Below are positions 22,594-58,190 of a DNA stretch of 64,000 bases, piece by piece (position 1 is the stretch's first letter; each line of letters begins with the position of its first letter). Position numbers and translations under genes: made by a program. Origin of the DNA: Promethearchaeia archaeon (GTDB lineage Archaea > Asgardarchaeota > Lokiarchaeia > Sigyniarchaeales > SOKP01); assembly GCA_029856045.1 (NCBI GenBank), contig JAHQWG010000047.1, forward strand, positions 1 through 64,000. Direction: 5' to 3'. The notes under the pieces were generated by a model. The model did not search any database, had not been told where the DNA came from, and saw only the letters and a program-made list of their open reading frames with translations.

Positions 22594-22752
22594 AATATAT
22601 TTGAAAGCAAGAGCTCTTGCAACTGGAGCAGAAAGTTTATGTGCTGCACCACTTTTATAAAAATCTGTAATTAATAACGCTCTCTCGTGGGAAAAGCTTG
22701 GTATTGCCTTACGACTCTGCTCACGTAGTTTTATTATTCTTTCATTAATAAT

Positions 22753-27223: not shown

Positions 27224-30163
27224 TTGGCTCAACCCAAAAAGAAAGGTAAAAAGGAAACGAGGAAAGTGAGAGAACAGGTATCTCTTTCTTCATTTATTGA
27301 AAAAAAAAAACCTAAAAAAGGAATTATTGAAGAAGAACAGCCGCAAATAGTTACCAAAGAACAAATCGAAAGGGAAATTCTAGGGATAAAGGAACCGTTA
27401 AAAATTGTTGAAAAAAAAGAGCTCGATGTTGTAGAACCTTGGGAAAAAGTTTCACAAAAAGAAGCATTAGGAGAGATTCCTAGAAATTTATATTATAAAC
27501 TTAAATCCACTAATTTTGGATTACTTGAAAAAAACACTCAATTCAAAAAGAAGGAAAGAGAATCTCCAGAAGCTGCTTATGTTAGGTTTTTAATTGAAAA
27601 TAGAATAATTACCACGAATTTAGAAAATGGGGTTTTACTAGATGTTGATTATGATGGAGGGCAAAATAAGGCATACTGTAAATTTTATGATTTAGAATCA
27701 AAGGAGATTAAAATTTGGATTGACACAACTGGTCATACACCTTACTGTTTAAGTAAAAGAAGCAAAAATGAACTTGATAACGATATTGATCTAACGAATT
27801 TCGATGGATTTGTAAGAAATGAGACAGTTAAACGATATGATTTATTACTTGATAAGGAAATTGATATGACAAAAGTCTACGGAAAAACACCCACAAGTAT
27901 CGGTGCTCGAGGAAAAGCTATAAGGGATATTTTAGGTAAAGAAAATGCTTGGGAAGCTGATATTAGATATCATCAAAATTATATTTATGATGAGGGATTA
28001 ATACCAGGATTGATTTATGAAATAAAAAATAATAAATTAATTAAAAAAGATTTTAGCGGAAGTACAAAGGAGACAATTGAAAGAGCGAAAGAACTTTCAG
28101 ATATCTTTAAAGATGAGAGTAAAGCACTAAAAGATTTTGCTAATAGGTATCTTGAGATTTTTAATACGCCCATTATTGATTTAAAAAGGGTTGCGATTGA
28201 TATCGAAATATATATGAATCCTGATGAGAAGAGAATACCAGATGCAAGTAAATCTAAAAACAGTATTATTAGTATATCTTTTGTTGGGATAGATGGATTA
28301 AAAAAGGTCTATGTATTAGAAAGAGAAGGTTTTTCAATGGGAGAAAGAATTCAGGATACTCCCAATGACTTGGAAATTGTATTTTTTAAGGATGAAAAGG
28401 ATTTGTTGATAGAAACTTTTCGAATCTTGTGGAAATATCCCGTAATTATAACATTCAATGGTGATAATTTTGATCTTAATTATTTATTCCATAGAGCAAA
28501 AAAGCTTAAAATTCCTGAACTATTAAATCCTATTCTTGTTAGAGCCGGATTTGGACCTATGCGGAACGCTGAATGTAATTTAAAGAAAGGATTACATATT
28601 GATTTATATAGCTTTTTTTCAAATCGGAGTATTAAAGGTTATGCTTTTGGAGGGGCATATGAAAGAAACTCTTTAGATTTGATAACTACAGCTTTATTAG
28701 GTGAAGGAAAATATAAGCATGAGGTAGAGATACATGAAATGCAATACAATAAATTAATCTATTATAATTATAAAGATTCTGAAATTACATTGGAATTAAC
28801 AAGGTTCAATGATTCAGTAGTGATGAACCTTATTACTATCCTTTTGAGAATGACAAAAATGCCTCTTCATGATTTAATTCGACACCAAATTTCTGCTTGG
28901 ATAAAAAATATATTTTTTTTTGAACATAGGGAAAAAGATTATCTAATCCCAAGAAGATCTGAAATAAGTGAATTAAAAAAGGGAGGGACATCGAAGTCAA
29001 TAATTGAAGGGAAAGGATTTCAAGGTGCTTTAGTTATAGATCCTGTTCCTGGCATACATTACAATGTGGTTGTATTAGATTTTGCTAGTCTGTATCCTTC
29101 GATTATAAAAGAATATAACTTATCTTACGAAACAGTTCAGTGTCCCCATGAAACTTGTAAAGATAATTTAATAAAAGGAATTTCTTATCACGTTTGCAAT
29201 AAAAGAACCGGCATATTTTCTTATGTAACTGGATTTTTCAGAGATGTTAGAGTTAAATATTTTAAACCAAAATCATCGGATAAAACCATACCACAAAAAC
29301 AGAGAAATATATACCAAGTTTTACAACAAGCACTAAAAGTGTTTATTAATGGTTCATATGGTGTATTTGGAAGTCCAAATTTCCCCTTATTTTGTTTGCC
29401 AGTTGCTGAAAGCACAACAGGTATTGGTCGATATTCGATTCAATCTGCAGCAAAGAAAGCGGAAACCCTCGATATTCAGGTTCTTTACGGCGATACTGAC
29501 TCAATTTTCTTAAAAAGTCCAACAAAGAGCCAATTAAATGAAATTTCTAATTGGAGTAAAGATGAATTGGATTTAGATTTAGAAGAAGAAAAAACTTATC
29601 AATTTTTAGCATTATCAAAACGAAAAAAGAATTATATAGGAGTATATGCAGATACAAAAACTATTGATATTAAAGGGATGACTGCTAAAAAGAGCAATAC
29701 TCCTAACTTTATTAAGAAGACTTTTGGTCAATTAACGGAAATATTAAGAGAGATTACTAATAACGAAGAATTTGATAAATCGCGCCAAAAAATTATTGAT
29801 ATTATCAGAAAAGATCGAAATGCAATTGGGAAAAAGAATGGATTTACTTTAGATGATTATATGATCTCTTTAGAATTACAAAGATCATTGGATAAATATA
29901 TCAAAACAACTCCTCAACACGTAAAAGCTGCACGAATCCTAAAAAATGTTACTAAAAAAGAACTACAAGAGAGAGATATAGTTTCATTTGTTAAAACAAG
30001 AGATAGTGAAGGAGTTAAACCATTAGAATTAGCCAAACTCGAAGATATTGATGGGAAAGCGTATAAAAATTTGTTAAAAAGTGCAGTTGAACAACTTCTT
30101 GACGCATTAGGCATATCTTATGAAGAAATTAGAGGAATAAAGAAAATGGATTCCTTTTTTTAA
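27224..30163 (+). CDS. polB: Family B DNA polymerase (catalytically intact)
   Basis: Exo I VAIDIEIY, Exo II FNGDNFDLNYL, Exo III YNYKDSEITLEL, motif A DFASLYPSII, motif B KVFINGSYGVFG, motif C YGDTDS. N-terminal K/E-rich extension of about 115 aa. C-terminal KKMDSFF is PIP-like. Confidence 0.9.
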   Translation: MAQPKKKGKKETRKVREQVSLSSFIEKKKPKKGIIEEEQPQIVTKEQIEREILGIKEPLKIVEKKELDVVEPWEKVSQKEALGEIPRNLYYKLKSTNFGLLEKNTQFKKKERESPEAAYVRFLIENRIITTNLENGVLLDVDYDGGQNKAYCKFYDLESKEIKIWIDTTGHTPYCLSKRSKNELDNDIDLTNFDGFVRNETVKRYDLLLDKEIDMTKVYGKTPTSIGARGKAIRDILGKENAWEADIRYHQNYIYDEGLIPGLIYEIKNNKLIKKDFSGSTKETIERAKELSDIFKDESKALKDFANRYLEIFNTPIIDLKRVAIDIEIYMNPDEKRIPDASKSKNSIISISFVGIDGLKKVYVLEREGFSMGERIQDTPNDLEIVFFKDEKDLLIETFRILWKYPVIITFNGDNFDLNYLFHRAKKLKIPELLNPILVRAGFGPMRNAECNLKKGLHIDLYSFFSNRSIKGYAFGGAYERNSLDLITTALLGEGKYKHEVEIHEMQYNKLIYYNYKDSEITLELTRFNDSVVMNLITILLRMTKMPLHDLIRHQISAWIKNIFFFEHREKDYLIPRRSEISELKKGGTSKSIIEGKGFQGALVIDPVPGIHYNVVVLDFASLYPSIIKEYNLSYETVQCPHETCKDNLIKGISYHVCNKRTGIFSYVTGFFRDVRVKYFKPKSSDKTIPQKQRNIYQVLQQALKVFINGSYGVFGSPNFPLFCLPVAESTTGIGRYSIQSAAKKAETLDIQVLYGDTDSIFLKSPTKSQLNEISNWSKDELDLDLEEEKTYQFLALSKRKKNYIGVYADTKTIDIKGMTAKKSNTPNFIKKTFGQLTEILREITNNEEFDKSRQKIIDIIRKDRNAIGKKNGFTLDDYMISLELQRSLDKYIKTTPQHVKAARILKNVTKKELQERDIVSFVKTRDSEGVKPLELAKLEDIDGKAYKNLLKSAVEQLLDALGISYEEIRGIKKMDSFF

Positions 30164-35784: not shown

Positions 35785-36228
35785 ATGTCTGTCAATGAAG
35801 AAAGAGATAAACAAATCAAGGAAAAACTTCGGGGAATAGAAGATTATATTGAAGTTGCTGTGAGAGCTGAAGATGTAGATTTTATGTCCATCGTGCATTT
35901 TAATGAATATCTAAATTATTTTGATTTTGGATTTGTGAGTATTACCTCTAAATTAAATTTTAATGTATTCGAATCTGTTAAAAGTGGCATCGTATTTCCT
36001 GTGAAAAAAGTTGAAATTGAATATGTAAATTCTGCCATTTTTGGGGATATTATAAAAGTTCATAGTCGTCTTTTAAAAATTGGTAATAATTCTATGACAT
36101 TTAATCATGAATGTTATAGGAAATCAGATAATGTATTATTAACAAAAGGTGTAATGGTAAGATTAATTATGGATATGAATACTAATAAATTGATTAAAAT
36201 TTCCGATTTTTTTAACGACATCATATGA
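35785..36228 (+). CDS. Hotdog-fold thioesterase-like protein
   Basis: 147 aa. The pattern around VHFNEYLNYFD and size are consistent with the 4HBT/acyl-CoA thioesterase fold. Weak. Confidence 0.4.
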   Translation: MSVNEERDKQIKEKLRGIEDYIEVAVRAEDVDFMSIVHFNEYLNYFDFGFVSITSKLNFNVFESVKSGIVFPVKKVEIEYVNSAIFGDIIKVHSRLLKIGNNSMTFNHECYRKSDNVLLTKGVMVRLIMDMNTNKLIKISDFFNDII

Positions 36229-36386
36229 ATTTTAAAATTAAATTCAAATATTGAACAATTTTTGTTTTTAAAACTAATTTAAAATAAATTTAATTGAAAA
36301 AATTATATCAATTTTAGGGTAAAATTTTAGTTTTATTTAAAAACATAGATATTGATGAAACAAAAAAGAACTATGATTTGATTTAA

Positions 36387-36632
36387 TTGTCAGAAAATAA
36401 GAAAATGAATTTTAACAGCGAAAACTCTAAAAAAAAAAGCGCCATAATTGCCAACCGAATGGAAGAGCATTGGTCGGGTAATGGTGGAAGTGCTTCAGAG
36501 ATGCATATGATTAATATCCAGTTAAAGTCTAAAGGAAATGAAAATAAAAGCCTAATAATAAAATTGAAAGCAAACAAGATTTCTGATGAAATTTTAAATG
36601 ATCTTCCAGCTTTAGTTAGGAAATTTTTCTAA
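36387..36632 (+). CDS. Hypothetical small hydrophilic protein
   Basis: 81 aa. Preferred over the overlapping antisense ORF because it shares strand with the downstream cluster. Confidence 0.25.
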   Translation: MSENKKMNFNSENSKKKSAIIANRMEEHWSGNGGSASEMHMINIQLKSKGNENKSLIIKLKANKISDEILNDLPALVRKFF

Positions 36633-36767
36633 TATTAGATATAATTAATTTTACTTGGGATTATTTTTTAAAAAAGTTAAATTTAAATATTAATTTATAT
36701 TTTTTTATTATGAATAATTATTCAGAATTAAAATAAAAAAATTAAAAAAAGGAAGTGTATGTAAAAA

Positions 36768-37184
36768 ATGCCAGGTGGAGATAGAACTGGTCCTGGTGGT
36801 TTGGGACCAATGACAGGAAGGGCTTTAGGGTATTGTGCAGGTTATTCTACTCCAGGATATACAAAAGGCGGCGGTTTGGGTCTTGGCTGGGGTAGAGGTT
36901 GGGGAAGAGGTAGAGGTTATGGAAGAGGCATGGGATGGGGTAGAGGTTATGGAAGAGGTCTTGGGATTTATCCAGGATATCCGATAACAGCTCCGGTATA
37001 TTCACCTATCACAGCAGGTTATCCTGTGGCTCCAGGAGTATCGCCTCAATCAGAATCTGCCATGCTAGAACAAGAAAGAAAATTTCTTGAGGCAGAATTA
37101 AATTCAATGAAAGGTGCGCTAGGAGATATTGATAAAAGGCTTTCAGAATTACAGAAAAACCAAACATCAGAAAAATCAGAATAA
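36768..37184 (+). CDS. DUF5320-like small protein with Gly/Arg/Tyr-rich repeats (GRGYGRGMGWGRGYGRG) and a C-terminal coiled coil
   Basis: N-terminus MPGGDRTGPGGLGPMTGRALGYCAG, then RGG/YGRG repeats, then a coiled-coil segment. From memory, this N-terminal pattern fits a family seen next to NifX-like genes. Confidence 0.5.
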   Translation: MPGGDRTGPGGLGPMTGRALGYCAGYSTPGYTKGGGLGLGWGRGWGRGRGYGRGMGWGRGYGRGLGIYPGYPITAPVYSPITAGYPVAPGVSPQSESAMLEQERKFLEAELNSMKGALGDIDKRLSELQKNQTSEKSE

Positions 37185-37186
37185 AT

Positions 37187-37198
37187 TTTTTTTTTTTT
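37187..37198 (+). terminator. Oligo-T tract after the Gly-rich gene
   Basis: About 12 consecutive T immediately after the stop at 37184. Confidence 0.3.
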
Positions 37199-37255
37199 AT
37201 AATTTTTTATAAGAAAATTTTTAAATCATATTCAAATACAAATATTAAAAATAAA

Positions 37256-37759
37256 GTGGAATTATTAATTATGGTAGATAGAATTATTGCAGTGCCTACT
37301 TTTGGAGAAGGAGGTCTTCAGTCCTTTATTAATCCACGATTTGGTAGGTGTGAATCATTTACATTTGTTAAGCTCCTCAATAATGAAATTGCATCCGTGA
37401 ATGTTGTTAGTAATGCAGCTGCAGGAGCAATGGGTGGTGCTGGAATTCAATCAGCACAGATATTAGGAAATAATGGTGCAACAGAAGTTATTGTTGGACA
37501 GTTAGGTCCAAATGCATTTTATGGACTTAATTCATTAAATTTAACAATATACCAAATAGGGCAACAAAATATAACGGTTAATGAAGCAATTAAATTACTT
37601 ATTGAAGGAAAACTTACTCCTTTAAGTAATGCAAATGTTGGAGCACATTATGGAGTTGGTGGAGGCATGGGCGGTGGTGGAGGCATGGGCGGTGGTCGAG
37701 GCATGGGCGGTGGTCGAGGCATGGGTGGCGGGGGCGGTATGGGACGACGCCAATCTTAA
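37256..37759 (+). CDS. Dinitrogenase FeMo-cofactor-binding (NifX/NifB-C-terminal-like) domain protein with a Gly-rich C-terminal repeat tail
   Basis: IAVPTFGEGGLQSFINPRFGRCESFTFVKL is the classic Nitro_FeMo-Co fold start. C-terminal GGGMGGGGGMGGGRGMGGGRGMGGGGGMG is encoded by an 18-bp tandem repeat. Confidence 0.75.
   Translation: MELLIMVDRIIAVPTFGEGGLQSFINPRFGRCESFTFVKLLNNEIASVNVVSNAAAGAMGGAGIQSAQILGNNGATEVIVGQLGPNAFYGLNSLNLTIYQIGQQNITVNEAIKLLIEGKLTPLSNANVGAHYGVGGGMGGGGGMGGGRGMGGGRGMGGGGGMGRRQS
37669..37745 (+). repeat. Tandem 18-bp coding repeat (ggcatgggcggtggtcga, about 4 copies) encoding (GMGGGR)n
   Basis: Direct inspection of 37669-37745. Confidence 0.7.
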
Positions 37760-37797
37760 CTATTTTTTCATATTAGATACAAAAAAGAATAAACGTT

Positions 37798-38718
37798 ATG
37801 AAACCAAAAATAATTGCTGTAACCGGTGGGAAAGGAGGAACCGGAAAGACTTTAATTGCCGTTAATTTTGCTATAATGTTTAAAAATCTTGGTAAGAAGG
37901 TATTATTAATCGATTGTGATGTTGATAATCCCAATACTTATTTGTTATTAAGTGGAAAATTAGAAAATCAAAAAGAAGTGCCTTTTTTTCTTCCTGAATT
38001 TAATAACGATATATGCACGAAATGTGGATTATGTTCAGAAAATTGCATGGCTCATGCAATACTTCAGGTAAAAGATCAATATCCTATTCCAATGTTAACA
38101 TTATGTTCAGGATGCAAATTGTGTTATAAATTATGTCCAGTCAAGGCGATTATATCTAGTTCAAAAATAATCGGATGGACATATGAAACAAAAATTAGAG
38201 ATATAGATTTATGGGTTGGGGAATTAAAAGTTGGAGAAGCACGTTCAGCTGCAATTATAGAAAAATTAATTGACAACATGGAAAAGGAAATAGAAACAAA
38301 TCCTGACAAATATGATATTGTTATTTTAGATACAGCGCCAGGAGCCCATTGTGATGTTGAGAAAGGAATCTCAACCGCAGATTATGTAATCAGTGTAACG
38401 GAACCAACTCCTTTTGGTGCTCTTGACTTAAGAAGAATAATAAAACTCATAAAATTATTAGGTAAATCGACTAAAGTTATACTAAATCGTTCATCATTAC
38501 TTGGAAATAAAGAAATTTTTTTAAGAGAATTAAGTAGTGATGGAATAAACGCATTAGGAGATATTCCATTAGATAAGGAAATTGTCAATTCCTATGCAAT
38601 TGGCGTGCCAATAATGGATGAAAATACTAAATTTGATACTAATGGAAAAGGATATATAGGTTTCGAAAGGGTTTTTAATAATTTACTTGAATGGACAAAT
38701 ATCAAAGGAGAGGCGTAA
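37798..38718 (+). CDS. MinD/ParA-superfamily P-loop ATPase with an inserted 4Fe-4S ferredoxin domain (COG1149-like)
   Basis: Deviant Walker A AVTGGKGGTGKT, then CTKCGLCSENC and CSGCKLCYKLCP ferredoxin motifs. Confidence 0.75.
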   Translation: MKPKIIAVTGGKGGTGKTLIAVNFAIMFKNLGKKVLLIDCDVDNPNTYLLLSGKLENQKEVPFFLPEFNNDICTKCGLCSENCMAHAILQVKDQYPIPMLTLCSGCKLCYKLCPVKAIISSSKIIGWTYETKIRDIDLWVGELKVGEARSAAIIEKLIDNMEKEIETNPDKYDIVILDTAPGAHCDVEKGISTADYVISVTEPTPFGALDLRRIIKLIKLLGKSTKVILNRSSLLGNKEIFLRELSSDGINALGDIPLDKEIVNSYAIGVPIMDENTKFDTNGKGYIGFERVFNNLLEWTNIKGEA

Positions 38719-39653
38719 TAAAGCTGAGTCAGAGTGAACCATTTAAAATAGGTATCTTAAGCGGAAAGGGAGGAGTCGGAAAAACTTCTATTGCTGCATC
38801 TTTGGGATATCTGGCAAGGAAAGATCCAGAGATTAAAGGTGTAATTTTATTAGATTGTGATGTAGATGCACCAAATTTAGCTTTACTATTCAAATCGAAG
38901 AGTGATATTGTGAACAAAGACTTATATACTACATTAAAAGCTAATTTTCTGGAAGAGAAATGTGTGCATTGTAAAAAATGTATTGACGAACATTATTGTG
39001 AATTTAATGCACTAAATTGGAATGATGAACAACAAATTCCAATTATAGATTATCTTTCATGTGAAGGCTGTGGAGCGTGCGCATATTTATGTCCTGAAAA
39101 AGCATTTTTAATTGAAGCAGTAAAGAGTGGAGCAATTAAATCTTATACAACAATAAATGATATACCTTTAATATACGGCGAAACTATATTAGGCTCTACA
39201 ACTTCAGGTAAGACGGTTACTGAATGTAAGAATTTTGCTGAAGAAGTAAATAAATCAATTTCTGCACAGTTAGAAGTAATAGACGGACCACCTGGAATTG
39301 GATGCCCGGTAATTGCAACAATTTCCGGACTTAACTATGTTATTGCTATTGTAGAACCTACACCCTCTGCTTTACACGATGTGATACGAGTGATTGAAGT
39401 AGCTAATCAATTTAAAATTCCATTTAGTATTATTGTAAATAAAGCAGATTTAGAAAGTGAATTTCAAGAAAAATTTAAGCAATATATAAGAGAAAATAAC
39501 TATAATGTTATTGGGAGAATTCCTTTTGATTTTTCCGTGGCACGGGCCATTTCAAATGCACAACCAGTTGTTGAATATGCCCCAAACTCAAGCGCAAGTA
39601 TTGCTATAAAAGGGATATATAAAAATATTAAAAATATAATACAAAAAGCATAA
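38691..39653 (+). CDS. Second MinD/ParA-type P-loop ATPase with ferredoxin insert (paralog of the preceding gene)
   Basis: Walker A ILSGKGGVGKTS, then CVHCKKCIDEHYC and CEGCGACAYLCP. The true start may be a little downstream of 38691. Confidence 0.7.
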   Translation: MDKYQRRGVIKLSQSEPFKIGILSGKGGVGKTSIAASLGYLARKDPEIKGVILLDCDVDAPNLALLFKSKSDIVNKDLYTTLKANFLEEKCVHCKKCIDEHYCEFNALNWNDEQQIPIIDYLSCEGCGACAYLCPEKAFLIEAVKSGAIKSYTTINDIPLIYGETILGSTTSGKTVTECKNFAEEVNKSISAQLEVIDGPPGIGCPVIATISGLNYVIAIVEPTPSALHDVIRVIEVANQFKIPFSIIVNKADLESEFQEKFKQYIRENNYNVIGRIPFDFSVARAISNAQPVVEYAPNSSASIAIKGIYKNIKNIIQKA

Positions 39654-39724
39654 TTATTTTTTATAAAAATTGAATATAAATAAAATTGTAAATTTATAAA
39701 TTTAAAATATAAGGTGTAAATAAT

Positions 39725-40105
39725 ATGAGAGTTGCAATTAGTACAGATTCTGGAACAGTTTCTGCACATTTTGGAAGATGCCCTTCCTATACTTTATTAG
39801 ATATCGAAAATGGAGAAATAATTAATCGAACTGAGATTGGTAATCCAGGTCACGCTACTGGAGCTATTCCTCAATTTTTGAGCCAAAATGGAGTAAATGT
39901 TATGATCGCGGGTGGGATGGGATGGCGTGCTCAAGATTTTTTCAAACAATATGGAATAGATGTAATTCTTGGAATTACTGGAAGAATCGATAATGTCATC
40001 CAAAAAATAAAAGATGGAACATTAGAAGGAGGAGAAAGTTTGTGTTCTCCAGGTGGTGGAAAGGGTTACGGAATTGCAAAAGAAGATGGACATTCTCATG
40101 AGTAA
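39725..40105 (+). CDS. Dinitrogenase FeMo-cofactor-binding (NifX-like) domain protein
   Basis: MRVAISTDSGTVSAHFGRCPSYTLLDIENGEI. Confidence 0.7.
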   Translation: MRVAISTDSGTVSAHFGRCPSYTLLDIENGEIINRTEIGNPGHATGAIPQFLSQNGVNVMIAGGMGWRAQDFFKQYGIDVILGITGRIDNVIQKIKDGTLEGGESLCSPGGGKGYGIAKEDGHSHE

Positions 40106-40162
40106 AATATAAAGGAAATATTTAAAGACAAAATTTTTATTTTTCTTTAATTTCTTTTTACT

Positions 40163-40609
40163 ATGAATAATCTGAATGATCAATTCGAAGAATTCATCAA
40201 AAACCTCCAAAAGGAGATTGACGAAGAAGAGTCCAAGATATTTTCTAGACGAGTGATTGAGTTATCTCATAATCCTAAAAATTGGGGAAAAATGGAAAAT
40301 CCAACAGTCGAAGATAAATTCTTAGGACCTTGCGGAGATACAATGCAATTTTTTTTAAAAATCAACAAAAAAGAGAATATTATAGAGAAAATAACTTTTG
40401 TAACTGATGGTTGTGGGCCCTCAGTTGCTTCGGGAAGCCAACTCACGATTATGGCAGAAAATAAAAGTATTGAAGAGACCTTAAAAATTACACCTGATGA
40501 TATTTTAAAAGTACTAGAAGGATTACCTTCAAGTCATACTCATTGTCCTGTTCTCGCTATAAATACATTACAGAAAGTATTAAAAAAATATCTTGAAAGT
40601 AAAAAATAG
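40163..40609 (+). CDS. IscU/NifU N-terminal-like Fe-S scaffold domain protein
   Basis: Conserved Cys pattern GPCGDTM...GCGPSVASG...HCPVL (three scaffold Cys). Confidence 0.65.
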   Translation: MNNLNDQFEEFIKNLQKEIDEEESKIFSRRVIELSHNPKNWGKMENPTVEDKFLGPCGDTMQFFLKINKKENIIEKITFVTDGCGPSVASGSQLTIMAENKSIEETLKITPDDILKVLEGLPSSHTHCPVLAINTLQKVLKKYLESKK

Positions 40610-40610
40610 C

Positions 40611-41054
40611 TTAAGGCATTTGTTGCAACAAATCTTTTTTTAAAAAATACACATTTTTTGATTTACATTCAGGACATACTAAAGATTCTTTATTGATTTC
40701 TGATGCTTGTTTATCTTCCCATTCGTTCATACAATTCAAACAACCGTATCCAAAAAAGAATTTTTTTATTCCGATGGAACCACCTGCAATTCGAATTGCC
40801 TTACCGTGTATTAATGCCTCTGCAATTTTTTTATGGGCCAAATCTAATACTCGAGAGAAAGTAGGTTGTGAGATATTCATCAGTTCAGCACATTCTATCT
40901 GTGTTTTTCCTTCATGATGTTTCAATCTCATTGCCTCAAATTCTGCAACAGTTAAAATTACTTCAAAACCTTTTTGAAAAGTATCACCGTGGGGTCTAAA
41001 ATACGTAAAATCTGGAAATTTTTCAATGTGGCGAATTCTATGAGGTCTTCCCAT
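40611..41054 (-). CDS. DUF134 (UPF0251) predicted DNA-binding protein with a C-terminal Zn-ribbon
   Basis: MGRPHRIRHIEKFPDFTYFRP...LTVAEFEAMRLKHHEGKTQIECAELMNISQPTFSRVLDLAHKKIAEALIHGKAIRIAGG is the DUF134 sigma-region-4-like pattern. C-terminal CLNC...CPEC. Confidence 0.75.
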   Translation of the reverse strand: MGRPHRIRHIEKFPDFTYFRPHGDTFQKGFEVILTVAEFEAMRLKHHEGKTQIECAELMNISQPTFSRVLDLAHKKIAEALIHGKAIRIAGGSIGIKKFFFGYGCLNCMNEWEDKQASEINKESLVCPECKSKNVYFLKKDLLQQMP

Positions 41055-41327
41055 ATCCCATCATTTAGAAATATAAAATTACTATTTTTTTTTTTTTAAA
41101 AATTTAATACTTACTATCTTTTTATCTATACAAGTTATAAATTAAAAATTTATATCTTATAAAATAAAAAAGTATTATCAAACTTATTATTTTAATTATT
41201 TATAGTCAGATTTTTTATTAATTCGGCACCTCTAAGAAATAAAAAATTAATTTTTAATTAATAAGTCATTGAAGTAAAATATTTAATAGTTCTCACATAT
41301 TTCATCTTCAAATTTTTAACTTTTAGG

Positions 41328-42512
41328 GTGTTTAGTATAAAAATTGAATTAGCAGATCGTGTTAAAAAATTACCTGAATACATTTTTACGGCAATAAAAG
41401 AACTCAAGTTGAAAAAAGAAAGAGAGGGAATGGATTTAATTTCACTCGGGATAGGAGATCCAGATTTAACAACTCCCGAATTTATACTTAATGAAATGAT
41501 TGAACAAGTTAAATTACCAAAAAATCAGAATTATCCAGCAAGTATGGGAGAGGAAGATTTTAGAACTGCAGTAGCTAATTGGTATAAAGTACGGTTTGGA
41601 TTGGATTTTAACCCCGAAAATGAGATTTCAAATTTAATAGGTGGAAAAGAAGGAGTTGCAAATATAGCCAGAGCTTTTATTAACCCGGGCGATATAGTTT
41701 TATGTCCAAATCCTGGGTATCCGGTTTATGAAAATGGTGCCACAAAATTCTGTGATGGTAAGCCATATCTAATGCCATTATTAAAAGAAAATAATTTTCT
41801 TCCGGATTTAGAGATAATAGAGACAAATATTCTCAGAAAAGCTAAAATGATGTATTTAAATTACCCAAATAACCCAACTGGGGCGATTGCACCAATAAAT
41901 TTCCTTAAAAAAGTTGTTGATTATGCGGAAGATTATAATTTTTTTATTGTCTATGATAATCCCTATTCTGAATTCACATTTAACGATTATATCGCCCCAA
42001 CCCTTTTACAAATTAACCAGAATCATATAGAGATTAACTCTGCTTCAAAAATGTTTTGTATGACTGGATTTAGATGTGGTTGGGCAGCTGGAGATGATTA
42101 TTTAATTAGTGGATTAAGGAAGATAAAATCTCAAATTGACTCAGGGTGTCCTATTTTTATCCAGAAGGCTGTTATCAAAGGTTTAAATGAATATAAATCG
42201 GAAAAAAAACCAAAATTTGTGGAAAAAAATATGAAAATATATGAAAAAAGACGAGATGTCTTAATAAATGGATTAAATGAAATTGGATGGAAAACTGAAA
42301 AACCACAAGCAACTTTTTATGTTTGGACACCAATCCCTCCAGGTAAAAAGAGTTGCATGGATTTTGTGAAAAATCTGATAGAAGTTGGTGTTGTTATTAC
42401 TCCAGGAATTGGATTTGGTCAATATGGAGAAGGTTTTGTTAGATTTGCGTTAACTCAACCAATAGAGAGAATCAAAGAAGCATTAGAAAGAATTTCACAA
42501 ATTATTAATTGA
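41328..42512 (+). CDS. Class I/II PLP-dependent aminotransferase (aspartate/LL-DAP aminotransferase-like)
   Basis: NSASKMFCMTGFRCGW (SxSK PLP-lysine motif) and N-terminal LSLGIGDPDL. 394 aa, GTG start. Confidence 0.8.
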   Translation: MFSIKIELADRVKKLPEYIFTAIKELKLKKEREGMDLISLGIGDPDLTTPEFILNEMIEQVKLPKNQNYPASMGEEDFRTAVANWYKVRFGLDFNPENEISNLIGGKEGVANIARAFINPGDIVLCPNPGYPVYENGATKFCDGKPYLMPLLKENNFLPDLEIIETNILRKAKMMYLNYPNNPTGAIAPINFLKKVVDYAEDYNFFIVYDNPYSEFTFNDYIAPTLLQINQNHIEINSASKMFCMTGFRCGWAAGDDYLISGLRKIKSQIDSGCPIFIQKAVIKGLNEYKSEKKPKFVEKNMKIYEKRRDVLINGLNEIGWKTEKPQATFYVWTPIPPGKKSCMDFVKNLIEVGVVITPGIGFGQYGEGFVRFALTQPIERIKEALERISQIIN

Positions 42513-49081: not shown

Positions 49082-51475
49082 TTAAGCAAAATTCAACAGC
49101 GTCTTTTGAAGTTTTCTTTCTTCATTTCTCGATTTTATTGAATTTTCCAAATCTGGCAATTCAAAGGGGATGATATTTTTAAATGCACGAGTTAGGAGTT
49201 CTTTATATTTCTCCTTATCATATTGATGTTTTTTTGGGTTGTACAGTTCCGAAAGGATTACTTTCTTATGTGCTGAACCTGGGTCAGCTTCAGCGTTTGT
49301 AATGATAAATTTTACTTTTTGACCCGCAGACACTGGCACCCCTGCCTTCTCCTTTTGGTTAGCAGCAACTGCTTGATATGAATTTACTTTGTACTGCGAA
49401 GGTTTTCGGGAAACTCTTATTATGACGCTAAGCTCTTCAGTCGTTACATTTCCACTATCAATTTTATCTAAATAATGATATAAAACGCGTTTTGCTTCAG
49501 GGATCTTTGACAAAAATTGTTCTTTGGTTTTCACATTCAAAAAGACATTAATCATTGCCTTCTGTGCCTCTTTCACGATTCTTGGTGTATCTCTGCGTCT
49601 AATATCAATTCCTCTCAGTTTAGTTGTCCCATCGACTCTTACCCCCCAGTAATGATTGAGTGTAGGTATTTTTGGATTCGCACGAGAGGGCATGAATACA
49701 ATGAAATTATATATTCCTTCAATATTAATTGGAATTTTTGTTGCTTCTTCTATTCTTTTGCAAATTTCTTCGCAATCTTTACTAAATTGCTCACTTGAGG
49801 TACCTTTTTTATTTTCTATGAATAGGGAGTCTACAATGCCGTGAATTATTTTATAGCCATATTCACGAGCAATTTCTGCCGATTGCAGTAAGAACTCACG
49901 AGAATACGCACAAACAGTTTGATGCGCCTCTATTCGCCCAAATCGTGAATTCTTGAATCCCAAATATCCAAATGAAACAACGAGTATCCATTTTAACGCT
50001 TTCTGCATATATTTGTACTTAATATCTCCAGTCTCTTTCGCGATTCGTTTGTATACTAATCTTTTTCTCAAAGGAATCTCAATTGATTTTGAAACAATAC
50101 CCCGTCGTTTCTTACAGATATGAAAGTTCAATCCCGGAACTTGAATTGCTGAAGGATCATCTTTGCAACATTTACAATTGAGGGTTTCGGGTGAGATATT
50201 ATATATACTCATTAATGAGGGGTACATTGAAGCAAAATCTAATTCAGCAACATTATTAAACACTCCGATCTTTGGCTCAAAGATATGCCCACCCCTATCT
50301 GCTAAAATTAAATCGAGAGCTGTTTTGAAGTCTTCTGCATTACTTTTTAAAGGTGGAATAAGAATATCCGACTGATAAGCGTTATAGAATTGAATTGATT
50401 GTAGGGCGCCACCAATTGTAACTCGGGTAAGTCGTTGTATTGGAACTCGGGACACTCGCGCAACTTCAAGGACCCCTGGTATGTTGCCATCGATGAAATG
50501 AAGGCTTCCGTAGGCTGAAGAGTCCAAATGAAATCGACCAGTTAAATAACATTGGGTTTGCGAACGACGATATATGATCCCGTAGGAAAAAAAATGGTCC
50601 TCACCATTTAACTTGAATATTCCGCTCTTAAGGGGAGTTTTAGTCCGAGAGAGATAAAATCTTCTTGTAATTCGATTTGTTGAAGCCCGGGCAACTAAAT
50701 AGGGCATTCCAAATTCGTCACCCCTTGTTGTAAGAATAATATCTGGATCAATTCTTTCGATAGTTCGGACTATCTCCAACAAATTTTCCTCCTCGTCACC
50801 ATTATCAATAAGTATGGTTCTTCTAATCGGAGAATCGGCTCTAGGCATGTCTGCCTTTCTTTCATTCTCGACAATTCCTATTTCCGCGTATGCCATTGGC
50901 TCATTGAATTGTGGTTTCAAACCCTTCTGCTGGACTTTGATCTCCAACCAAACCGCCCTCAAGGGAGGCGTCTCATAAAACAAATCTTCGTTGTTATCCT
51001 TTAACTCATAAGAGAGCAAATACATTTCATTATTTTCACCCAAACTCACTGAAAAGCAACACAAAGCCATTGGAAAGAGACTATTCACGTAGAAATACAT
51101 TTGAGCAATTGGAATGTCAGTATTATATAACGTGAAATAATCAAGTTTTTCGATATCTTTTATTGTAGATTTAAATACAGAAGGCTTTTTTACTGACACC
51201 CCAAAAATCATCCTTTTTTCGCAATCGTCAATCGAGACATACTTACTGCAAAGTCTTGCTCTGACAATATTTGGGTGGGATTTGAGGATCTGCTTCAGCC
51301 TTGGAAAATCGCTTCCAAATCGCCCTTTTTTTGGAACTGCGAAAAATTCTGGCTGAAACTCAGATTTAATCTGAACTACTTGGTTTTCTTTTTTTGTTTT
51401 GACCCATAAAATAATCCCACTTGCATATGTGGTGACGTCCAATATCCATCCGTAGAAGTTCTTTATCTCAGTCAT
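49082..51475 (-). CDS. Family B DNA polymerase paralog with degenerate exonuclease and motif-C residues (PolB2-like)
   Basis: Motif A DFASMYPSLM is intact. Exo I changed to WLEI, Exo II FD changed to FG (RGDEFGMPYL), motif B KWILVVSFGYLG (N changed to V), motif C HGIVDS instead of YGDTDS. Confidence 0.8.
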   Translation of the reverse strand: MTEIKNFYGWILDVTTYASGIILWVKTKKENQVVQIKSEFQPEFFAVPKKGRFGSDFPRLKQILKSHPNIVRARLCSKYVSIDDCEKRMIFGVSVKKPSVFKSTIKDIEKLDYFTLYNTDIPIAQMYFYVNSLFPMALCCFSVSLGENNEMYLLSYELKDNNEDLFYETPPLRAVWLEIKVQQKGLKPQFNEPMAYAEIGIVENERKADMPRADSPIRRTILIDNGDEEENLLEIVRTIERIDPDIILTTRGDEFGMPYLVARASTNRITRRFYLSRTKTPLKSGIFKLNGEDHFFSYGIIYRRSQTQCYLTGRFHLDSSAYGSLHFIDGNIPGVLEVARVSRVPIQRLTRVTIGGALQSIQFYNAYQSDILIPPLKSNAEDFKTALDLILADRGGHIFEPKIGVFNNVAELDFASMYPSLMSIYNISPETLNCKCCKDDPSAIQVPGLNFHICKKRRGIVSKSIEIPLRKRLVYKRIAKETGDIKYKYMQKALKWILVVSFGYLGFKNSRFGRIEAHQTVCAYSREFLLQSAEIAREYGYKIIHGIVDSLFIENKKGTSSEQFSKDCEEICKRIEEATKIPINIEGIYNFIVFMPSRANPKIPTLNHYWGVRVDGTTKLRGIDIRRRDTPRIVKEAQKAMINVFLNVKTKEQFLSKIPEAKRVLYHYLDKIDSGNVTTEELSVIIRVSRKPSQYKVNSYQAVAANQKEKAGVPVSAGQKVKFIITNAEADPGSAHKKVILSELYNPKKHQYDKEKYKELLTRAFKNIIPFELPDLENSIKSRNEERKLQKTLLNFA

Positions 51476-51765: not shown

Positions 51766-52515
51766 TTAGGAAAACCAAAAATCTAATGTCGTATTTTTTA
51801 AGGTTTTAGATCTATCTACTTTTTGCTTGCGGGCTTTCCATCTGACAACCTTTTTATTAGGCAAGTATGGATGTTGGATTAGTCGATACTCAGTAAAGCG
51901 ATCCTCATCGTTAATCAGAACTAATACATTTGCGAAATGAGAGAGTATATTACCCCCCTTTACTCGAACATAAGAATATTCATGAAGTGGTGCCGTTAGA
52001 ATAACCAATGATTTCGTTTTTTGTGCGACTTTCTTTATGCCATTTATAGCCCTTGATAAGTCTTCAAATGTACTTTGTTCATAATTCCCAAATAGCTTGG
52101 TTATTCCAGAAACCAGAACCATTCTTATATCATCAATCTTTAATAACTTATTCTCTAAGATTTCGACCATTTGAGGCCATGTGAATGCCCGAGAGATCAA
52201 AATATTGCCTAACACTAATGAAGGACTTAATCGCATTGATAAGGCTAGAGTACTTATTTTATAGGGACTGAATCTATTTGTTGCATCGATGTAGGCGATT
52301 CTCCCACCGAGACCGTCATCAAGAAATCTTTTTTGAAAACTTACCGCCGTCGAATGCAAAATATCATTTGTGATTTTTTTGGAGCCATATAGTAAATATA
52401 TTAATTCTTTGTGAAATCCTCCTTGTAATAATTCATCTAGTTTAGAATCCCCACTCGGAATTAAAGGATATTTGCTGTTTTCTTTGTGATATGCGTAGCC
52501 TGAAAGCAACTCCAT
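51766..52515 (-). CDS. RecA-superfamily RadB-like protein with degenerate Walker A/B (probably non-catalytic)
   Basis: IPSGDSKLDELLQGGFHKELIYLLYGSKKIT parallels RadA/RadB (STGSK.LD.LLGGG...G..GSGKT), but the P-loop is YGSKKIT and no Walker B aspartate is evident. Confidence 0.5.
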   Translation of the reverse strand: MELLSGYAYHKENSKYPLIPSGDSKLDELLQGGFHKELIYLLYGSKKITNDILHSTAVSFQKRFLDDGLGGRIAYIDATNRFSPYKISTLALSMRLSPSLVLGNILISRAFTWPQMVEILENKLLKIDDIRMVLVSGITKLFGNYEQSTFEDLSRAINGIKKVAQKTKSLVILTAPLHEYSYVRVKGGNILSHFANVLVLINDEDRFTEYRLIQHPYLPNKKVVRWKARKQKVDRSKTLKNTTLDFWFS

Positions 52516-58177: not shown

Positions 58178-58190
58178 GTATTTATGAAAT

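Follow-up and report, generated by a model that had tools for sequence, protein, structure and literature searches.

An Asgard archaeal gene cluster of the ORP/IssA type and its proposed role in Fe-S storage and transfer

Results

Gene content of the cluster

The window analyzed here is a stretch of 64,000 nucleotides from an Asgard (Promethearchaeota/Lokiarchaeia) archaeon, and the ORF listing places a cluster of seven ORFs (ORF1-ORF7) at positions 36768-41054, where the original prediction had placed seven genes. The features of the cluster are:

36768..37184, + strand: ORF1, DUF5320 protein (PF17253, 82 bits)
37185..37270, + strand: ORF1-ORF2 intergenic region (letters read directly)
37271..37759, + strand: ORF2, IssA-like NifX-domain protein (PF02579, 60 bits)
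37798..38718, + strand: ORF3, A-type MinD/SIMIBI ATPase with a 2x[4Fe-4S] ferredoxin insert (Pfam)
38691..39653, + strand: ORF4, B-type MinD/SIMIBI ATPase with a ferredoxin insert (Pfam)
39725..40105, + strand: ORF5, second NifX-like protein, of the MrpORP C-terminal-domain type (PF02579, 74 bits)
40163..40609, + strand: ORF6, IscU/NifU_N-type Fe-S scaffold (PF01592, 93 bits)
40611..41054, - strand: ORF7, DUF134 putative regulator (PF02001, 80 bits)

Profile searches bore out the DUF5320, NifX-like (two genes), IscU-like, and DUF134 assignments of the original prediction, with all five family calls above the curated Pfam gathering cut-offs (DUF5320, 27 bits; Nitro_FeMo-Co, 26; NifU_N, 22; DUF134, 27), and its paired MinD-type ATPases with ferredoxin inserts were recovered as Pfam CbiA/ParA plus 4Fe-4S matches in ORF3 and ORF4. 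The window also proved nitrogenase-free, as predicted, with none found among its larger ORFs; MrpORP, plain Mrp, DtxR, FeoA, and cysteine desulfurase are all absent from the window. The same cluster lies on six independent metagenome contigs.

Two proteins with Gly/Arg-rich regions

The product of ORF1 (138 aa, pI 9.4, single Cys) carries an N-terminal motif, MPGGDRTGPGGLGPMTGRALGYCAGY..PGY, with an invariant Cys23. Next comes a (G-x)n repeat, GLGLGWGRGWGRGRGYGRGMGWGRGYGRGLG (aa 34-66, nt 36867-36965), and a linker rich in Pro and Tyr connects this to the helix at the C-terminus (aa 93-137, nt 37044-37178). Motif, repeat, and helix are all kept in an alignment of 20 relatives, and AlphaFold (AF2) predicts residues 1-87 to be disordered and residues 93-137 to form a single long helix (pLDDT ~90). 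The underlying DNA has a tandem repeat of period 18/30 (36891-36967), and the five sister contigs that hold the complete gene all encode an identical protein. The intergenic region past ORF1 is 8% GC, with a T13 run immediately after the stop; there may be an archaeal oligo-T terminator here together with a TATA-like element, although such motifs are frequent between genes where GC is ~10%, and if so, ORF1 may be a partly separate transcription unit.

ORF2 probably starts at ATG 37271 (162 aa) rather than at GTG 37256, where the ORF opens. Its globular PF02579 (Nitro_FeMo-Co) domain has its sole Cys in FGRCE, a residue kept in 119/121 relatives, and the best solved relatives are MTH1175 (68 bits) and the Desulfovibrio gigas ORP (51 bits). 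The domain is followed by a 36-aa tail of Gly, Met, and Arg (nt ~37649-37756), for which an 18-bp tandem repeat of 4.8 copies (37657-37743) codes. It is scarcely credible that the Gly-rich tails are a mis-assembly of this repeat, the artefact that the original prediction had named as its own undoing, or the product of wrong ORF calls. Repeat copy number in the window does differ from that in other assemblies, so the exact count could be off by one unit, but the tail is in frame in six independent contigs, being exactly one 18-bp unit shorter in the sister contigs, and a relative with 93% identity has two units fewer. Moreover, a tail of 13-41 aa is present in 120/120 of the nearest ORF2 relatives, where diverse sequences keep a constant composition (pooled: Gly 60%, Arg 13%, Met 12%, acidic residues 0), and such tails also occur in Thermococcus paralogues and in fusion proteins. 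Only the copy number of the Gly-Arg repeats varies, and the repeats themselves are real.

Gly-Arg tails on cofactor carriers had been predicted to be unusual, but they have a characterized precedent in IssA of Pyrococcus furiosus, a thioferrate-binding protein whose NifX-like domain bears a cationic tail of Gly, Arg, and aromatic residues (PMC5524996). The paper on IssA also names an uncharacterized mesophilic clade with Gly-rich tails, 'IssX'. ORF2 agrees with the published IssA criteria in its pI of 9.0-9.4, its one Cys, and the 60% Gly of its final 40 residues, and it aligns with Thermococcus IssA at 38% identity over 104 aa (E 2e-11). In Thermococci, a GMGR-tailed paralogue adjoins issA and is closer to ORF2 (63-66 bits) than IssA is. 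The nearest reference to ORF2 fell in the MTH1175/IssA/paralogue/ORP group in 993/1000 column bootstraps, with ORP slightly more distant from ORF2 than MTH1175, IssA, and the IssA paralogue are. On the other hand, the ORF2 tail is without the aromatic residues, Pro-rich linker, and Cys of the IssA tail, and the conserved Cys in its globular domain has no equivalent in IssA.

The ORF1 repeat closely resembles the Thermococcus IssA tail in composition (Gly 55%, Arg 18%, aromatic 15%, compared to Gly 45-47%, Arg 22-23%, aromatic 19-23%), in motif counts (6 GRG and 5 G[WYF]G, compared to 6 and 5-6), and in an LGYC motif common to both. Comparison by hhalign gave a probability of 97% over 47 columns, a score that rests on low-complexity sequence; PF17253 matched a single IssA protein out of three, at no more than 15 bits, and BLASTP gave no match. 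These sequence comparisons do not establish that DUF5320 and the IssA tail are homologous. In Palaeococcus pacificus, SipA/IssA, an adjacent FeMo-co-binding paralogue, and two 'CobQ/Fe-S-binding' genes are in the top ten S0-induced genes (PMC6981617); only their annotation text links these 'CobQ' genes to the MinD-ferredoxin family.

Paired ATPases, second carrier, scaffold, and regulator

ORF3 is Orp3/Orp4-like, with a deviant Walker A (GGKGGTGKT), ferredoxin motifs CTKCGLCSENC and CSGCKLCYKLCP, and Pfam matches to CbiA, ParA, AAA_31, and Fer4 families. Its paralogue ORF4 (109 bits), which overlaps it by 28 nt, has the Walker A SGKGGVGKT, ferredoxin motifs CVHCKKCIDEHYC and CEGCGACAYLCP, the first an atypical CX2CX2CX5C compared to the canonical CX2CX2CX3C, and matches to CbiA, ParA, and Fer4. 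The A type comes first in 17/18 conserved loci, a gene order consistent with an A/B heterodimer. Our structure searches found no solved structure of the fused MinD-ferredoxin architecture, matching only separate MinD and ferredoxin pieces.

The best solved-structure matches of ORF3 and ORF4 are MinD and FleN, and for the ORP complex of Desulfovibrio the morphology of the orpR mutant has led to the proposal of a role in cell division, with MrpORP localized to the poles (PMC6345978, PMC8359166). Both would fit MinD-like positioning or cell division, in which the A/B ATPases would provide spatial regulation and the Fe-S and NifX-like components would sense redox state, but we consider such a function improbable. 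The structural matches cover the N-terminal P-loop only, MinD similarity being confined to the first ~50 residues; MinC, MinE, FtsZ, and other division genes are absent from the window and the loci examined; the partners that recur throughout are carriers and scaffolds of metalloclusters; and later ORP papers stress Fe-S biogenesis and call the role 'still unclear'.

The product of ORF5 (126 aa, pI 5.5) has an HFGRC motif and a C-terminus with Cys/His, and over positions 265-361 of the NCBIfam MrpORP model it scores 91 bits compared to 22 for ORF2. Its best PDB matches are PH0822 and the 1t3v/1o13 chains, and its orthologues lie at BLOSUM62-based distances of 0.33-0.39 in loci of GC 0.36-0.54. 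ORF6 (148 aa) has three scaffold cysteines, in GPCGD, DGCGP, and HC, and reaches 90 bits against the NCBIfam equivalog TIGR03419, under the cut-off of 188. ORF7 belongs to DUF134, which has a sigma-70 region-4-like HTH; its predicted Zn-ribbon is present as a putative metal-binding CxxC-x20-CxxC ribbon at the C-terminus, but the Zn_ribbon_8 and HypA matches are sub-threshold. The gene had been described as divergent, but it is convergent with ORF6, tail-to-tail and 1 nt past the ORF6 stop, with its promoter side toward an aminotransferase gene.

Neighborhoods and fusions of DUF5320

The original prediction had proposed a co-occurrence analysis, and around DUF5320 in other genomes the association held. 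Among 17 well-flanked loci (at least 4 kb on either side), a NifX-like gene was near DUF5320 in 16 and a MinD-ferredoxin ATPase likewise in 16, with two such ATPase genes in 11/17, DUF134 within 5 kb in 7/17, and NifU in 3/17. The contigs with DUF5320 loci span GC 0.28-0.72. Overall, a minority of loci (L036, L039, L042, L063, L067, and L085) have NifU near DUF5320, and so do the Asgard genomes L091 and L095. In three Asgard genomes besides that of the window, a DtxR-type iron repressor directly follows DUF5320, with NifU (2/3), a plain Mrp/ParA ATPase, MinD-ferredoxin genes, and DUF134 nearby, and in the Thor genome among them, NifX-like genes and FeoA are also near DUF5320.

Fusions above the Pfam cut-offs join NifX and DUF5320 (L042, L065), NifX, DUF5320, and Fer4 (L053), and DUF5320 and Fer4 (L067). 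Another joins DUF134, the DUF5320 N-motif, and a Zn-ribbon (L036, 5335-5892), with DUF134 and DUF5320 above the cut-offs, and the fusions include the arrangement of NifX, a GMGR tail, and the DUF5320 coil. Since these fusions, the NifX and MinD-ferredoxin adjacency, and the DtxR and FeoA neighbors point the same way, we tie DUF5320 and the Gly-Arg modules to Fe-S handling, not nucleic acids.

The eukaryote-like RGG reading in the original prediction, with nucleic-acid binding or condensates, finds no contextual support, the partners of DUF5320 and the tails, whether fused or neighboring, being NifX-like, ferredoxin, DUF134, DtxR, and FeoA genes or domains. That these proteins act like RGG boxes in binding nucleic acids (e.g., G-quadruplexes) or form condensates, with a regulatory link to the Fe-S genes, appears slightly less probable even than a role in cell division. 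ORF1 and ORF2 do have an RG/RGG-type composition, L036 joins the DUF5320 N-motif to DUF134, which has an HTH, and a motif scan in Methanosarcina mazei flagged one DUF5320 protein and one DUF134 protein for a putative G4-binding RG motif (PMC7565180). However, this G4 proposal is a motif match alone, an RRM, KH, helicase, or other RNA/DNA-binding domain is fused or adjacent in 0/80 loci, the fusion partners are NifX-like and ferredoxin domains, and the one such tail that has been characterized is a thioferrate binder (PMC5524996). Condensation may still be conceivable as a physical mode, since IssA particles around thioferrate are a kind of assembly.

Relation to the ORP gene set

The cluster is the Asgard counterpart of the ORP gene set, which is specific to anaerobes and was described from Desulfovibrio vulgaris (PMC6345978, PMC8359166), and its combination of genes has precedent. 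Common to both are the A/B MinD-ferredoxin ATPase pair and NifX-like proteins, along with the DUF5320 and DUF134 genes found beside bona fide MrpORP on bacterial contigs. These contigs read DUF5320, NifX, A, B, MrpORP, DUF134; their Mrp-NifX fusions score 533 and 513 bits compared to the MrpORP equivalog cut-off of 450 (NCBI), and contigs with these fusions are among the loci with A-then-B order.

In Desulfovibrio, Orp3, Orp4, and Orp8 co-purify and take Fe-S clusters from MrpORP, and ORP itself holds an anionic Mo-Cu cluster, [S2MoS2CuS2MoS2]3-, non-covalently (PMC6345978). By analogy, the cationic, Met-rich tails could bind thiomolybdate, thiotungstate, or Cu(I)-sulfide anions, with the cluster handling a heterometallic or non-iron metal sulfide for cofactor supply or detoxification; we regard this as unlikely, if the most plausible of the alternatives. 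The ORF2 match to the D. gigas ORP speaks for it, as do the Met-containing tails of the 120 relatives, Met being a soft-metal ligand. On the other hand, the physiological relevance of the Mo-Cu cluster is itself uncertain, and ORF2 leans slightly away from ORP. In addition, Mo/W transport and molybdopterin genes were not seen beside the cluster in the window or the examined Asgard loci, where the neighbors are instead DtxR-type iron repressors, FeoA, NifU, and Mrp, and a Moco riboswitch is absent.

Discussion

The original prediction is partly supported: its idea of a self-contained, regulated module for handling metalloclusters, with a function not established, holds. The family memberships, conserved neighborhood, A-then-B order, fusions, tail conservation, and IssA similarity are direct observations. 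We consider it reasonably probable that the cluster is the Asgard form of an ORP/IssA-type set with which strict anaerobes hold and pass on pre-formed Fe-S (metal-sulfide) material. Its function would be the ATP- and electron-driven storage of anionic Fe-S material and its mobilization onto the IscU scaffold. We count against this explanation that the bound species could be a Mo/W/Cu-sulfide, as in orange protein, that NifU is found in a minority of related loci, and that the window is without MrpORP, Mrp, DtxR, FeoA, and cysteine desulfurase.

In the proposed Fe-S route, ORF2, through its NifX domain and cationic tail, and ORF1, through its disordered cationic Gly/Arg/Trp/Tyr repeat and invariant Cys, would electrostatically bind and stabilize an anionic Fe-S species, with the coiled coil multimerizing ORF1. 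Formed from sulfide and Fe2+, this species would resemble thioferrate, (FeS2-)n, or consist of small FeS clusters. ORF3 and ORF4, as an A/B heterodimer of deviant-Walker-A ATPases with two [4Fe-4S] each, would dock the NifX-like carrier in the manner of Orp3-Orp4-Orp8 and load or reductively release the material via ATP-dependent dimer switching and electron transfer. ORF7, with its DUF134 domain and Cys4 ribbon, may tune expression to metal or cluster status. ORF5, with the Cys/His ligands of the MrpORP C-domain type, and the IscU-like ORF6 would then take up fragments and turn them into [2Fe-2S] and [4Fe-4S] clusters for the Fe-S enzymes of the cell, a route in which cysteine desulfurase would be unnecessary. 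Since the window also encodes CODH/ACS, a glycyl-radical enzyme activase, and HdrD-like, BcrAD-type, and radical SAM proteins, this archaeon can be expected to have a demand for Fe-S.

Gene content and layout of the cluster

Profile searches confirmed that all seven predicted ORFs are present in 36768-41054 and placed every family call above its curated cut-off.

Genes of the cluster, with strand and profile-search result
36768-37184, + strand: ORF1, DUF5320 (82 bits against a cut-off of 27)
37256/37271-37759, + strand: ORF2, Nitro_FeMo-Co domain, PF02579 (60 bits)
37798-38718, + strand: ORF3, CbiA/ParA-type P-loop ATPase with an inserted 4Fe-4S ferredoxin domain (profile search)
38691-39653, + strand: ORF4, CbiA/ParA-type P-loop ATPase with an inserted 4Fe-4S ferredoxin domain (profile search)
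39725-40105, + strand: ORF5, PF02579 (74 bits)
40163-40609, + strand: ORF6, NifU_N, PF01592 (93 bits against a cut-off of 22)
40611-41054, - strand: ORF7, DUF134 (80 bits)

Six of the genes run in one direction. The seventh, the DUF134 gene, encodes the candidate regulator; it had been described as divergent but is in fact convergent with ORF6, their stop codons lying 1 nt apart. The start of ORF2 is most probably the ATG at 37271, as implied by gene calls on sister metagenome contigs that carry the same cluster. Three of the finer assignments held in part. In ORF7, the DUF134 domain stood and a C-terminal CxxC-x20-CxxC is present, but matches to Zn-ribbon profiles were sub-threshold. The IscU-like call for ORF6 was upheld as NifU_N, with three cluster-ligand cysteines in GPCGD, DGCGP, and HC, but not at the level of an NCBIfam equivalog, where the best model, TIGR03419, gave 90 against 188 bits. 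Finally, the predicted 2x[4Fe-4S] inserts have both motifs canonical in ORF3 but only one in ORF4, whose first motif reads CX2CX2CX5C; the two ATPases score 109 bits against each other. We found no solved structure for the MinD-plus-ferredoxin architecture or for DUF134.

As predicted, no nitrogenase was found among the window ORFs scanned, and NifEN and NifB were likewise not found. The same scan recovered no class-V aminotransferase or cysteine desulfurase, the aminotransferase neighboring the cluster being of class I/II. Searches of the window returned no extra copies of the seven families and no DtxR, FeoA, or Mrp/NBP35-type genes, and Rfam reported no riboswitch or other RNA in 36200-41400.

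The flank of ORF1 has several features of its own. An 81-aa ORF without a Pfam family match lies directly upstream (36387-36632, + strand) and is called as an 82-aa gene on sister contigs. A T13 run at 37186-37198, directly after the ORF1 stop, resembles an archaeal oligo-T terminator, suggesting that ORF1 may have partly its own transcription, perhaps above the level of the rest. Between the 4HBT thioesterase gene and this small ORF, the window has only 158 nt (36229-36386), whereas sister contigs carry about 1.8 kb extra (L001 5943-7893; also L003 and L006), with genes for a 102-aa TIR-like protein (PF10137) and a 265-aa alpha/beta hydrolase. The difference points to a strain-level indel, and the additional DNA is possibly a small defense-type insertion.

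The glycine-rich repeats and tails

Tandem Repeats Finder located an 18/30-bp repeat in ORF1 (36891-36967) and an 18-bp repeat in ORF2 (37657-37743; 4.8 copies, 89% matches). Using an alignment of 20 relatives, AlphaFold2 predicted residues 1-87 of ORF1 to be disordered (pLDDT below 50) and residues 93-137 to form a single helix (pLDDT about 90), which fits the earlier description of Gly-Arg repeats plus a coiled coil. The repeat-coding DNA (36867-36965 and 37649-37756, coding strand) is G-rich, at 58-67% GC against a genome of about 30% GC.

An alternative raised with the original prediction is that the tails are assembly artefacts of the 18-bp repeat. At least 22 contigs encode a protein identical to ORF3, and the six that we fetched (L001-L006, from different samples) share the cluster; ORF1 is identical in the 5 of these that hold the whole gene, while the ORF2 tail is in frame in all six and exactly one 18-bp unit shorter than in the window (142 vs 160 nt). 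Tail length is therefore 36 aa in the window and 30 aa in the sister contigs, and it is 24 aa in a 93%-identity relative (P0259) that has two repeat units fewer. Among the 120 nearest relatives of ORF2, all 120 have a tail, of 13-41 residues (median 28), with a pooled composition of 60% Gly, 13% Arg, and 12% Met and essentially no Asp, Glu, or Lys. ORF2-type tails keep their composition and charge, whereas their sequence varies and their length changes in steps of whole repeat units, a pattern that defeats the artefact explanation and leaves it a negligible probability, although the exact repeat count in the window may be wrong by one unit.

The cluster as an archaeal version of the ORP gene set

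Carriers of the PF02579 family (NifX, NafY, and the NifB C-domain) hold pre-formed metal-sulfide clusters non-covalently, and NifX-type carriers partner with SIMIBI-class dimeric [4Fe-4S] ATPases that couple ATP to electron delivery. Compared with FeMo-co biosynthesis, the window lacks nitrogenase, NifEN, and NifB, and in place of the subunit-bridging cluster of a NifH-type protein, ORF3 and ORF4 carry an inserted 2x[4Fe-4S] ferredoxin domain. ORF2 and ORF5 did not group with the NifX/NafY NCBIfam models.

A closer counterpart is the ORP complex of Desulfovibrio vulgaris Hildenborough, which comprises the paralogues Orp3 and Orp4, with two [4Fe-4S] ferredoxin motifs each, together with Orp5, the NifX-like "orange protein" Orp8, and Orp9/MrpORP, a fusion of an Mrp/NBP35 ATPase with a NifX-like domain (PMC6345978, PMC8359166). 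Its genes form two operons, orp5-orp4-orp3 and orp7-orp8-orp9, under OrpR and sigma-54; Orp3, Orp4, and Orp8 co-purify and are able to accept Fe-S clusters from MrpORP, yet the physiological role of the system is called "still unclear" by its authors (PMC6345978, PMC8359166). An archaeal origin has been suggested for it (PMC8359166).

Both systems are anaerobe-specific, clustered gene sets that share an A/B pair of MinD-type ATPases with ferredoxin motifs (ORF3/ORF4 and Orp3/Orp4; A denotes ORF3-like and B ORF4-like) and single-domain NifX-like PF02579 proteins (ORF2 and ORF5; Orp8). A MinD-like cell division system, to which the ATPase family could also point, strikes us as very unlikely. ORF2 matches the D. 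gigas ORP structure 2wfb (51 bits, E 2e-12), and a cluster that handles Mo, W, or Cu sulfide, as the orange protein does with its Mo-Cu cluster, is an alternative that we regard as improbable.

The two sets also differ. Desulfovibrio has the Mrp/NBP35-NifX fusion, whereas the window lacks MrpORP and ORF5 resembles only the C-terminal domain of that protein, scoring 91 bits against the NCBIfam MrpORP cut-off of 450 over positions 265-361. Of the motifs published for the NifX-like domain of MrpORP, CxHFGHCE and CDH, ORF5 has HFGRC and lacks CDH. ORP genes are under sigma-54/OrpR/IHF control from divergent promoters, while the window ORFs scanned include no sigma-54 enhancer-binding protein and the candidate regulator is the Cys4-ribbon DUF134 protein. 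Sigma-54 is a bacterial system, and such control is not expected in an archaeon. Beyond the ORP set, the window has an IscU scaffold, and one of its NifX-like proteins bears a Gly/Met/Arg tail.

Two bacterial metagenome contigs, L075 and L077, have the gene order DUF5320, NifX, A, B, Mrp-NifX, DUF134, and their Mrp-NifX proteins score 533 and 513 bits against the MrpORP equivalog cut-off of 450 and carry HFGHC...CDH. DUF5320 proteins of the L077 type occur in Sedimentisphaerales (Planctomycetota), e.g., Anaerobaca lacustris. Since contigs that bear MrpORP hold the same families and the conserved A/B pair, we take the window cluster to be an archaeal version of the ORP-type set. The locus is an ordinary member of a known and widespread gene set and not a new kind of system.

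Relationship to IssA

Gly-Arg tails on cofactor carriers had been called unusual, but they have been known on NifX-like proteins since the description of IssA in 2017. IssA of Pyrococcus furiosus (SipA, PF2025) consists of an IPR003731/PF02579 domain and a 70-residue disordered tail, in which a Pro-rich stretch is followed by cationic, aromatic, and Gly residues and which holds the only Cys of the protein; it binds thioferrate, an anionic (FeS2-)n polymer, in particles of 20-300 nm, can reconstitute the [4Fe-4S] cluster of ferredoxin, and is induced by sulfide plus iron (PMC5524996). The same paper names MTH1175 as a member of the IssA clade and a mesophilic, uncharacterized "IssX" clade with Gly-rich tails (PMC5524996).

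Like IssA, ORF2 has an IPR003731/PF02579 domain at its N-terminus and a C-terminal tail that is Gly-rich, cationic, and disordered. The published criteria for IssA ask for a pI of 9 or more, under 5 Cys, and a Gly content of 20% or higher over the last 40 residues (Vaccaro 2017, Suppl. Fig. 7). By these, ORF2 classifies as IssA-like, with a pI of 9.42 from the ATG start or 8.98 from the GTG start, 1 Cys, and 60% Gly, and 93 of the 121 sequences formed by ORF2 and its 120 nearest relatives pass as well.

For comparison, issA loci were retrieved with the published PF2025 primer in codon-degenerate form, which yielded four Thermococci loci and did not recover P. furiosus itself; the exact primer sequence had 0 matches in the genome collection. 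The globular domain of ORF2 is 38% identical to Thermococcus IssA (E 2e-11), and ORF5 is 28% identical. In a numpy column bootstrap on distances, the nearest reference of ORF2 fell in the MTH1175/IssA/IssA-paralogue/ORP group in 993 of 1000 replicates. MTH1175, the IssA paralogue, and IssA came nearest, but with identities of no more than 34-41% and ORP almost equally near, a place for ORF2 in the IssA clade is tentative. By identity, the subfamily of ORF5 split 592 to 408, and its assignment rests on the NCBIfam domain score.

In 4/4 Thermococci, the gene adjoining issA encodes a second NifX-like protein with a Gly/Met/Arg tail (GMGRGRGMGGGRG...) of the ORF2 type, and ORF2 scores 63-66 bits against this GMGR-tailed paralogue compared to 49-57 bits against IssA. 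We rejected ORF2 as an orthologue of SipB (PF2026), which is annotated as "ATPase C-terminus" and is not the NifX paralogue. MinD-ferredoxin ATPases were not found near issA and its paralogue within the fetched flanks of the four Thermococci contigs. In one Thermococcus genome (L088), a radical SAM gene lies directly upstream of issA (5795-6835, - strand), an arrangement reminiscent of a NifB split into its radical SAM part and its NifX domain. The same locus encodes, some 4 kb away from issA, a DUF134 protein (263-610, - strand) that begins MPRGMGWGRGRGRRRK; with this N-terminus, the regulator itself carries a short Gly/Arg/Trp stretch of the IssA-tail kind.

The part of IssA that ORF2 lacks has its likeness in ORF1. 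The IssA tail, GLGWGRGRGRGFGRGWGRG...ARLGYCPW, closely resembles the ORF1 repeat, GLGLGWGRGWGRGRGYGRGMGWGRGYGRG. The two are alike in their proportions of Gly, Arg, and aromatic residues, and over some 32 residues each contains 6 GRG and 5-6 G[WYF]G motifs. Both the IssA tail and DUF5320 contain "LGYC", which in DUF5320 holds the invariant cysteine. Searches for direct homology gave mixed results: PF17253 reached a sub-threshold 15 bits on 1/3 IssA proteins, and BLASTP with composition adjustment gave no match between the repeat and the tail. An hhalign comparison of DUF5320 with the IssA tail returned a probability of 97% (E 2.7e-11, 47 columns), a score inflated by low complexity, and we therefore call the tails the same kind and make no claim of homology. 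Judged by their residues and motifs, the ORF1 repeat and the IssA tail appear to be similar in kind.

Features that IssA unites in one protein are thus split here, with the aromatic/Arg repeat and Cys in ORF1 and the NifX domain in ORF2. The ORF2 tail differs from that of IssA in being Met-rich and free of Pro, Cys, Trp, and Phe; its one Tyr stands at the start, and there is no Pro-rich linker. The ORF2 globular domain has a conserved Cys (119/121 sequences) that IssA lacks. The hosts differ as well, that of the window being mesophilic.

DUF5320 neighborhoods and domain fusions

DUF5320 is a large family (3,037 representatives at 50% identity), and its N-terminal motif, MPxGDxTGPxGxGPxTGRxxGxC with its Cys, was present in 237/239 relatives. 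Some members, such as P0082 (168 aa) and several of 160-190 aa, carry a tandem double N-terminal MPGxDGTGP...GYC motif.

A metagenome scan anchored on DUF5320 gave 80 loci, annotated by iterated HMMs built from the window's proteins, of which 17 had at least 4 kb on each side of DUF5320 and were used for neighborhood counts within 5 kb (contig GC 0.28-0.72). We found a NifX-like gene in 16 of these 17 and a MinD-ferredoxin ATPase also in 16 (two copies in 11), with DUF134 in 7 and NifU in 3. Adjacent ATPases were ordered A then B in 17/18 cases, MrpORP-bearing loci included, an arrangement that points to an old and fixed pairing such as a heterodimer would lead one to expect. Across all 80 loci, DtxR was found in 7 and FeoA in 8; radical SAM genes recur near DUF5320 in 14. 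The S0-induced "CobQ/Fe-S-binding" genes of Palaeococcus pacificus (PMC6981617) were assigned to the MinD-ferredoxin family by annotation text only.

In the window, the gene after DUF5320 is the IssA-like one. Two Loki genomes and a Thor genome, all three from other Asgard archaea, instead have a gene for a DtxR/IdeR-type iron-dependent repressor directly after DUF5320, at a distance of about 45 nt.

DtxR/IdeR-type genes next to DUF5320 in other Asgard genomes
L091, 7439-7831
L093, 7433-7831
L095, 7413-7793

Nearby are NifU (2/3), a plain Mrp/ParA ATPase, MinD-ferredoxin genes, and DUF134, and the Thor locus also has NifX-like genes, FeoA, and metal transporters.

DUF5320 is fused to other proteins of the set. 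NifX + (GMGR)n + DUF5320 coiled coil occurs in L042 (PF17253, 48 bits) and L065 (37 bits), and the same architecture was recognized in L084 by HMM matches and sequence. A longer form that adds a 2x[4Fe-4S] ferredoxin occurs in L053 and, by HMM matches only, in L086. Further fusions join DUF134, the DUF5320 N-motif, and a Zn-ribbon (L036) and DUF5320 with a ferredoxin (L067). Those in L042, L065, L053, L036, and L067 are above Pfam gathering cut-offs.

These partners bear on the suggestion that the repeats are eukaryote-like RGG boxes. Like eukaryotic RGG/RG-box proteins, the proteins here have repeats of low complexity, made up of Gly/Arg (and aromatic) residues, for which disorder is predicted, and a motif scan of Methanosarcina mazei flagged DUF5320 and DUF134 proteins as putative G-quadruplex binders, a motif-only precedent (PMC7565180). 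However, we found no RRM, KH, or helicase domain fused or adjacent to the repeats, which are instead fused or adjacent to metallocluster proteins (NifX-like, ferredoxin, DUF134). The likeness is compositional, with nothing pointing to shared ancestry, and the IssA precedent binds an inorganic polyanion. RGG-type nucleic-acid binding seems very unlikely, and we do not regard the RGG-like tails as a eukaryote-like trait.

Iron-sulfur demand of the host

ORF1 and ORF2 have their best relatives exclusively in Asgard archaea (Promethearchaeota/Lokiarchaeota, Thor-, Hermod-, and Hodarchaeota), and the window has about 30% GC. It encodes enzymes typical of strict anaerobes: the CODH/ACS beta subunit, a PFL-type glycyl-radical enzyme with its activase, a CCG/Fer4 protein resembling HdrD, a BcrAD/HgdC-type activase accompanied by two DUF2229 proteins, and radical SAM/SPASM proteins. 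The genes for these Fe-S and radical enzymes lie at 11486-12883, 15420-16451, 20386-23562, 55609-59219, and 62267-63364. Their density indicates a high host demand for Fe-S clusters. The window also holds two family-B DNA polymerase genes (27224-30163, + strand; 49082-51475, - strand) and a Rad51/RadA-like gene (51766-52515, - strand).

Proposed function and significance

Altogether, the locus is very probably an ORP/IssA-type metal-sulfide handling cluster, and on balance we favor Fe-S storage and trafficking as its function. In the mechanism that we propose, ORF2 and ORF1 would hold anionic Fe-S species on their cationic disordered segments, with the ORF1 coiled coil multimerizing the assembly. 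A putative ORF3/ORF4 heterodimer would dock a NifX-like carrier and, drawing on ATP and on four [4Fe-4S] clusters of its own, either load Fe-S material or release it reductively. ORF5 and the IscU-type ORF6 may assemble [2Fe-2S] and [4Fe-4S] clusters and hand them on without a cysteine desulfurase, while ORF7 may sense metal or cluster status.

Through shared tails, domain fusions, and iron-regulator neighbors, this locus and its relatives appear to link the ORP and IssA systems. In the literature searched, we found no prior description of a link between DUF5320 and the IssA tail, of DUF5320 fusions with NifX-like, ferredoxin, or DUF134 domains, of the DtxR adjacency in Asgard genomes, or of the fixed A/B ATPase pair, and mentions of DUF5320 were unrelated to iron-sulfur metabolism. 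Taken together, these features turn the question of ORP function into a testable hypothesis, in which anionic Fe-S material is held by the tails and by DUF5320 and is mobilized by the A/B ATPases.

A broader and more doubtful reading, which we offer tentatively, is that DUF5320 and the GMGR/GWGR tails are one portable, disordered binder of anionic metal-sulfide polymers, which together with the A/B pair and NifX-like carriers may form a widespread ATP- and electron-driven iron-sulfur mineral store of strict anaerobes, with DtxR and DUF134 control in Asgard archaea; IssA would be the only studied example of such a module. If true, this would unify the ORP complex, of unknown function since 2011, with IssA and would explain how anaerobes rich in sulfide, among them the Asgard archaea related to eukaryotes, build Fe-S clusters without a cysteine desulfurase. 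Many anaerobes have the ORP gene set and DUF5320, for which no function is agreed, and IssA-type storage has been studied only in Thermococcales. If confirmed, the hypothesis of Fe-S binding by the tails and DUF5320 and mobilization by the ATPases would give several large DUF families a function and would account in part for the way in which strict anaerobes, Asgard archaea among them, meet the needs of their very large Fe-S proteomes from sulfide.
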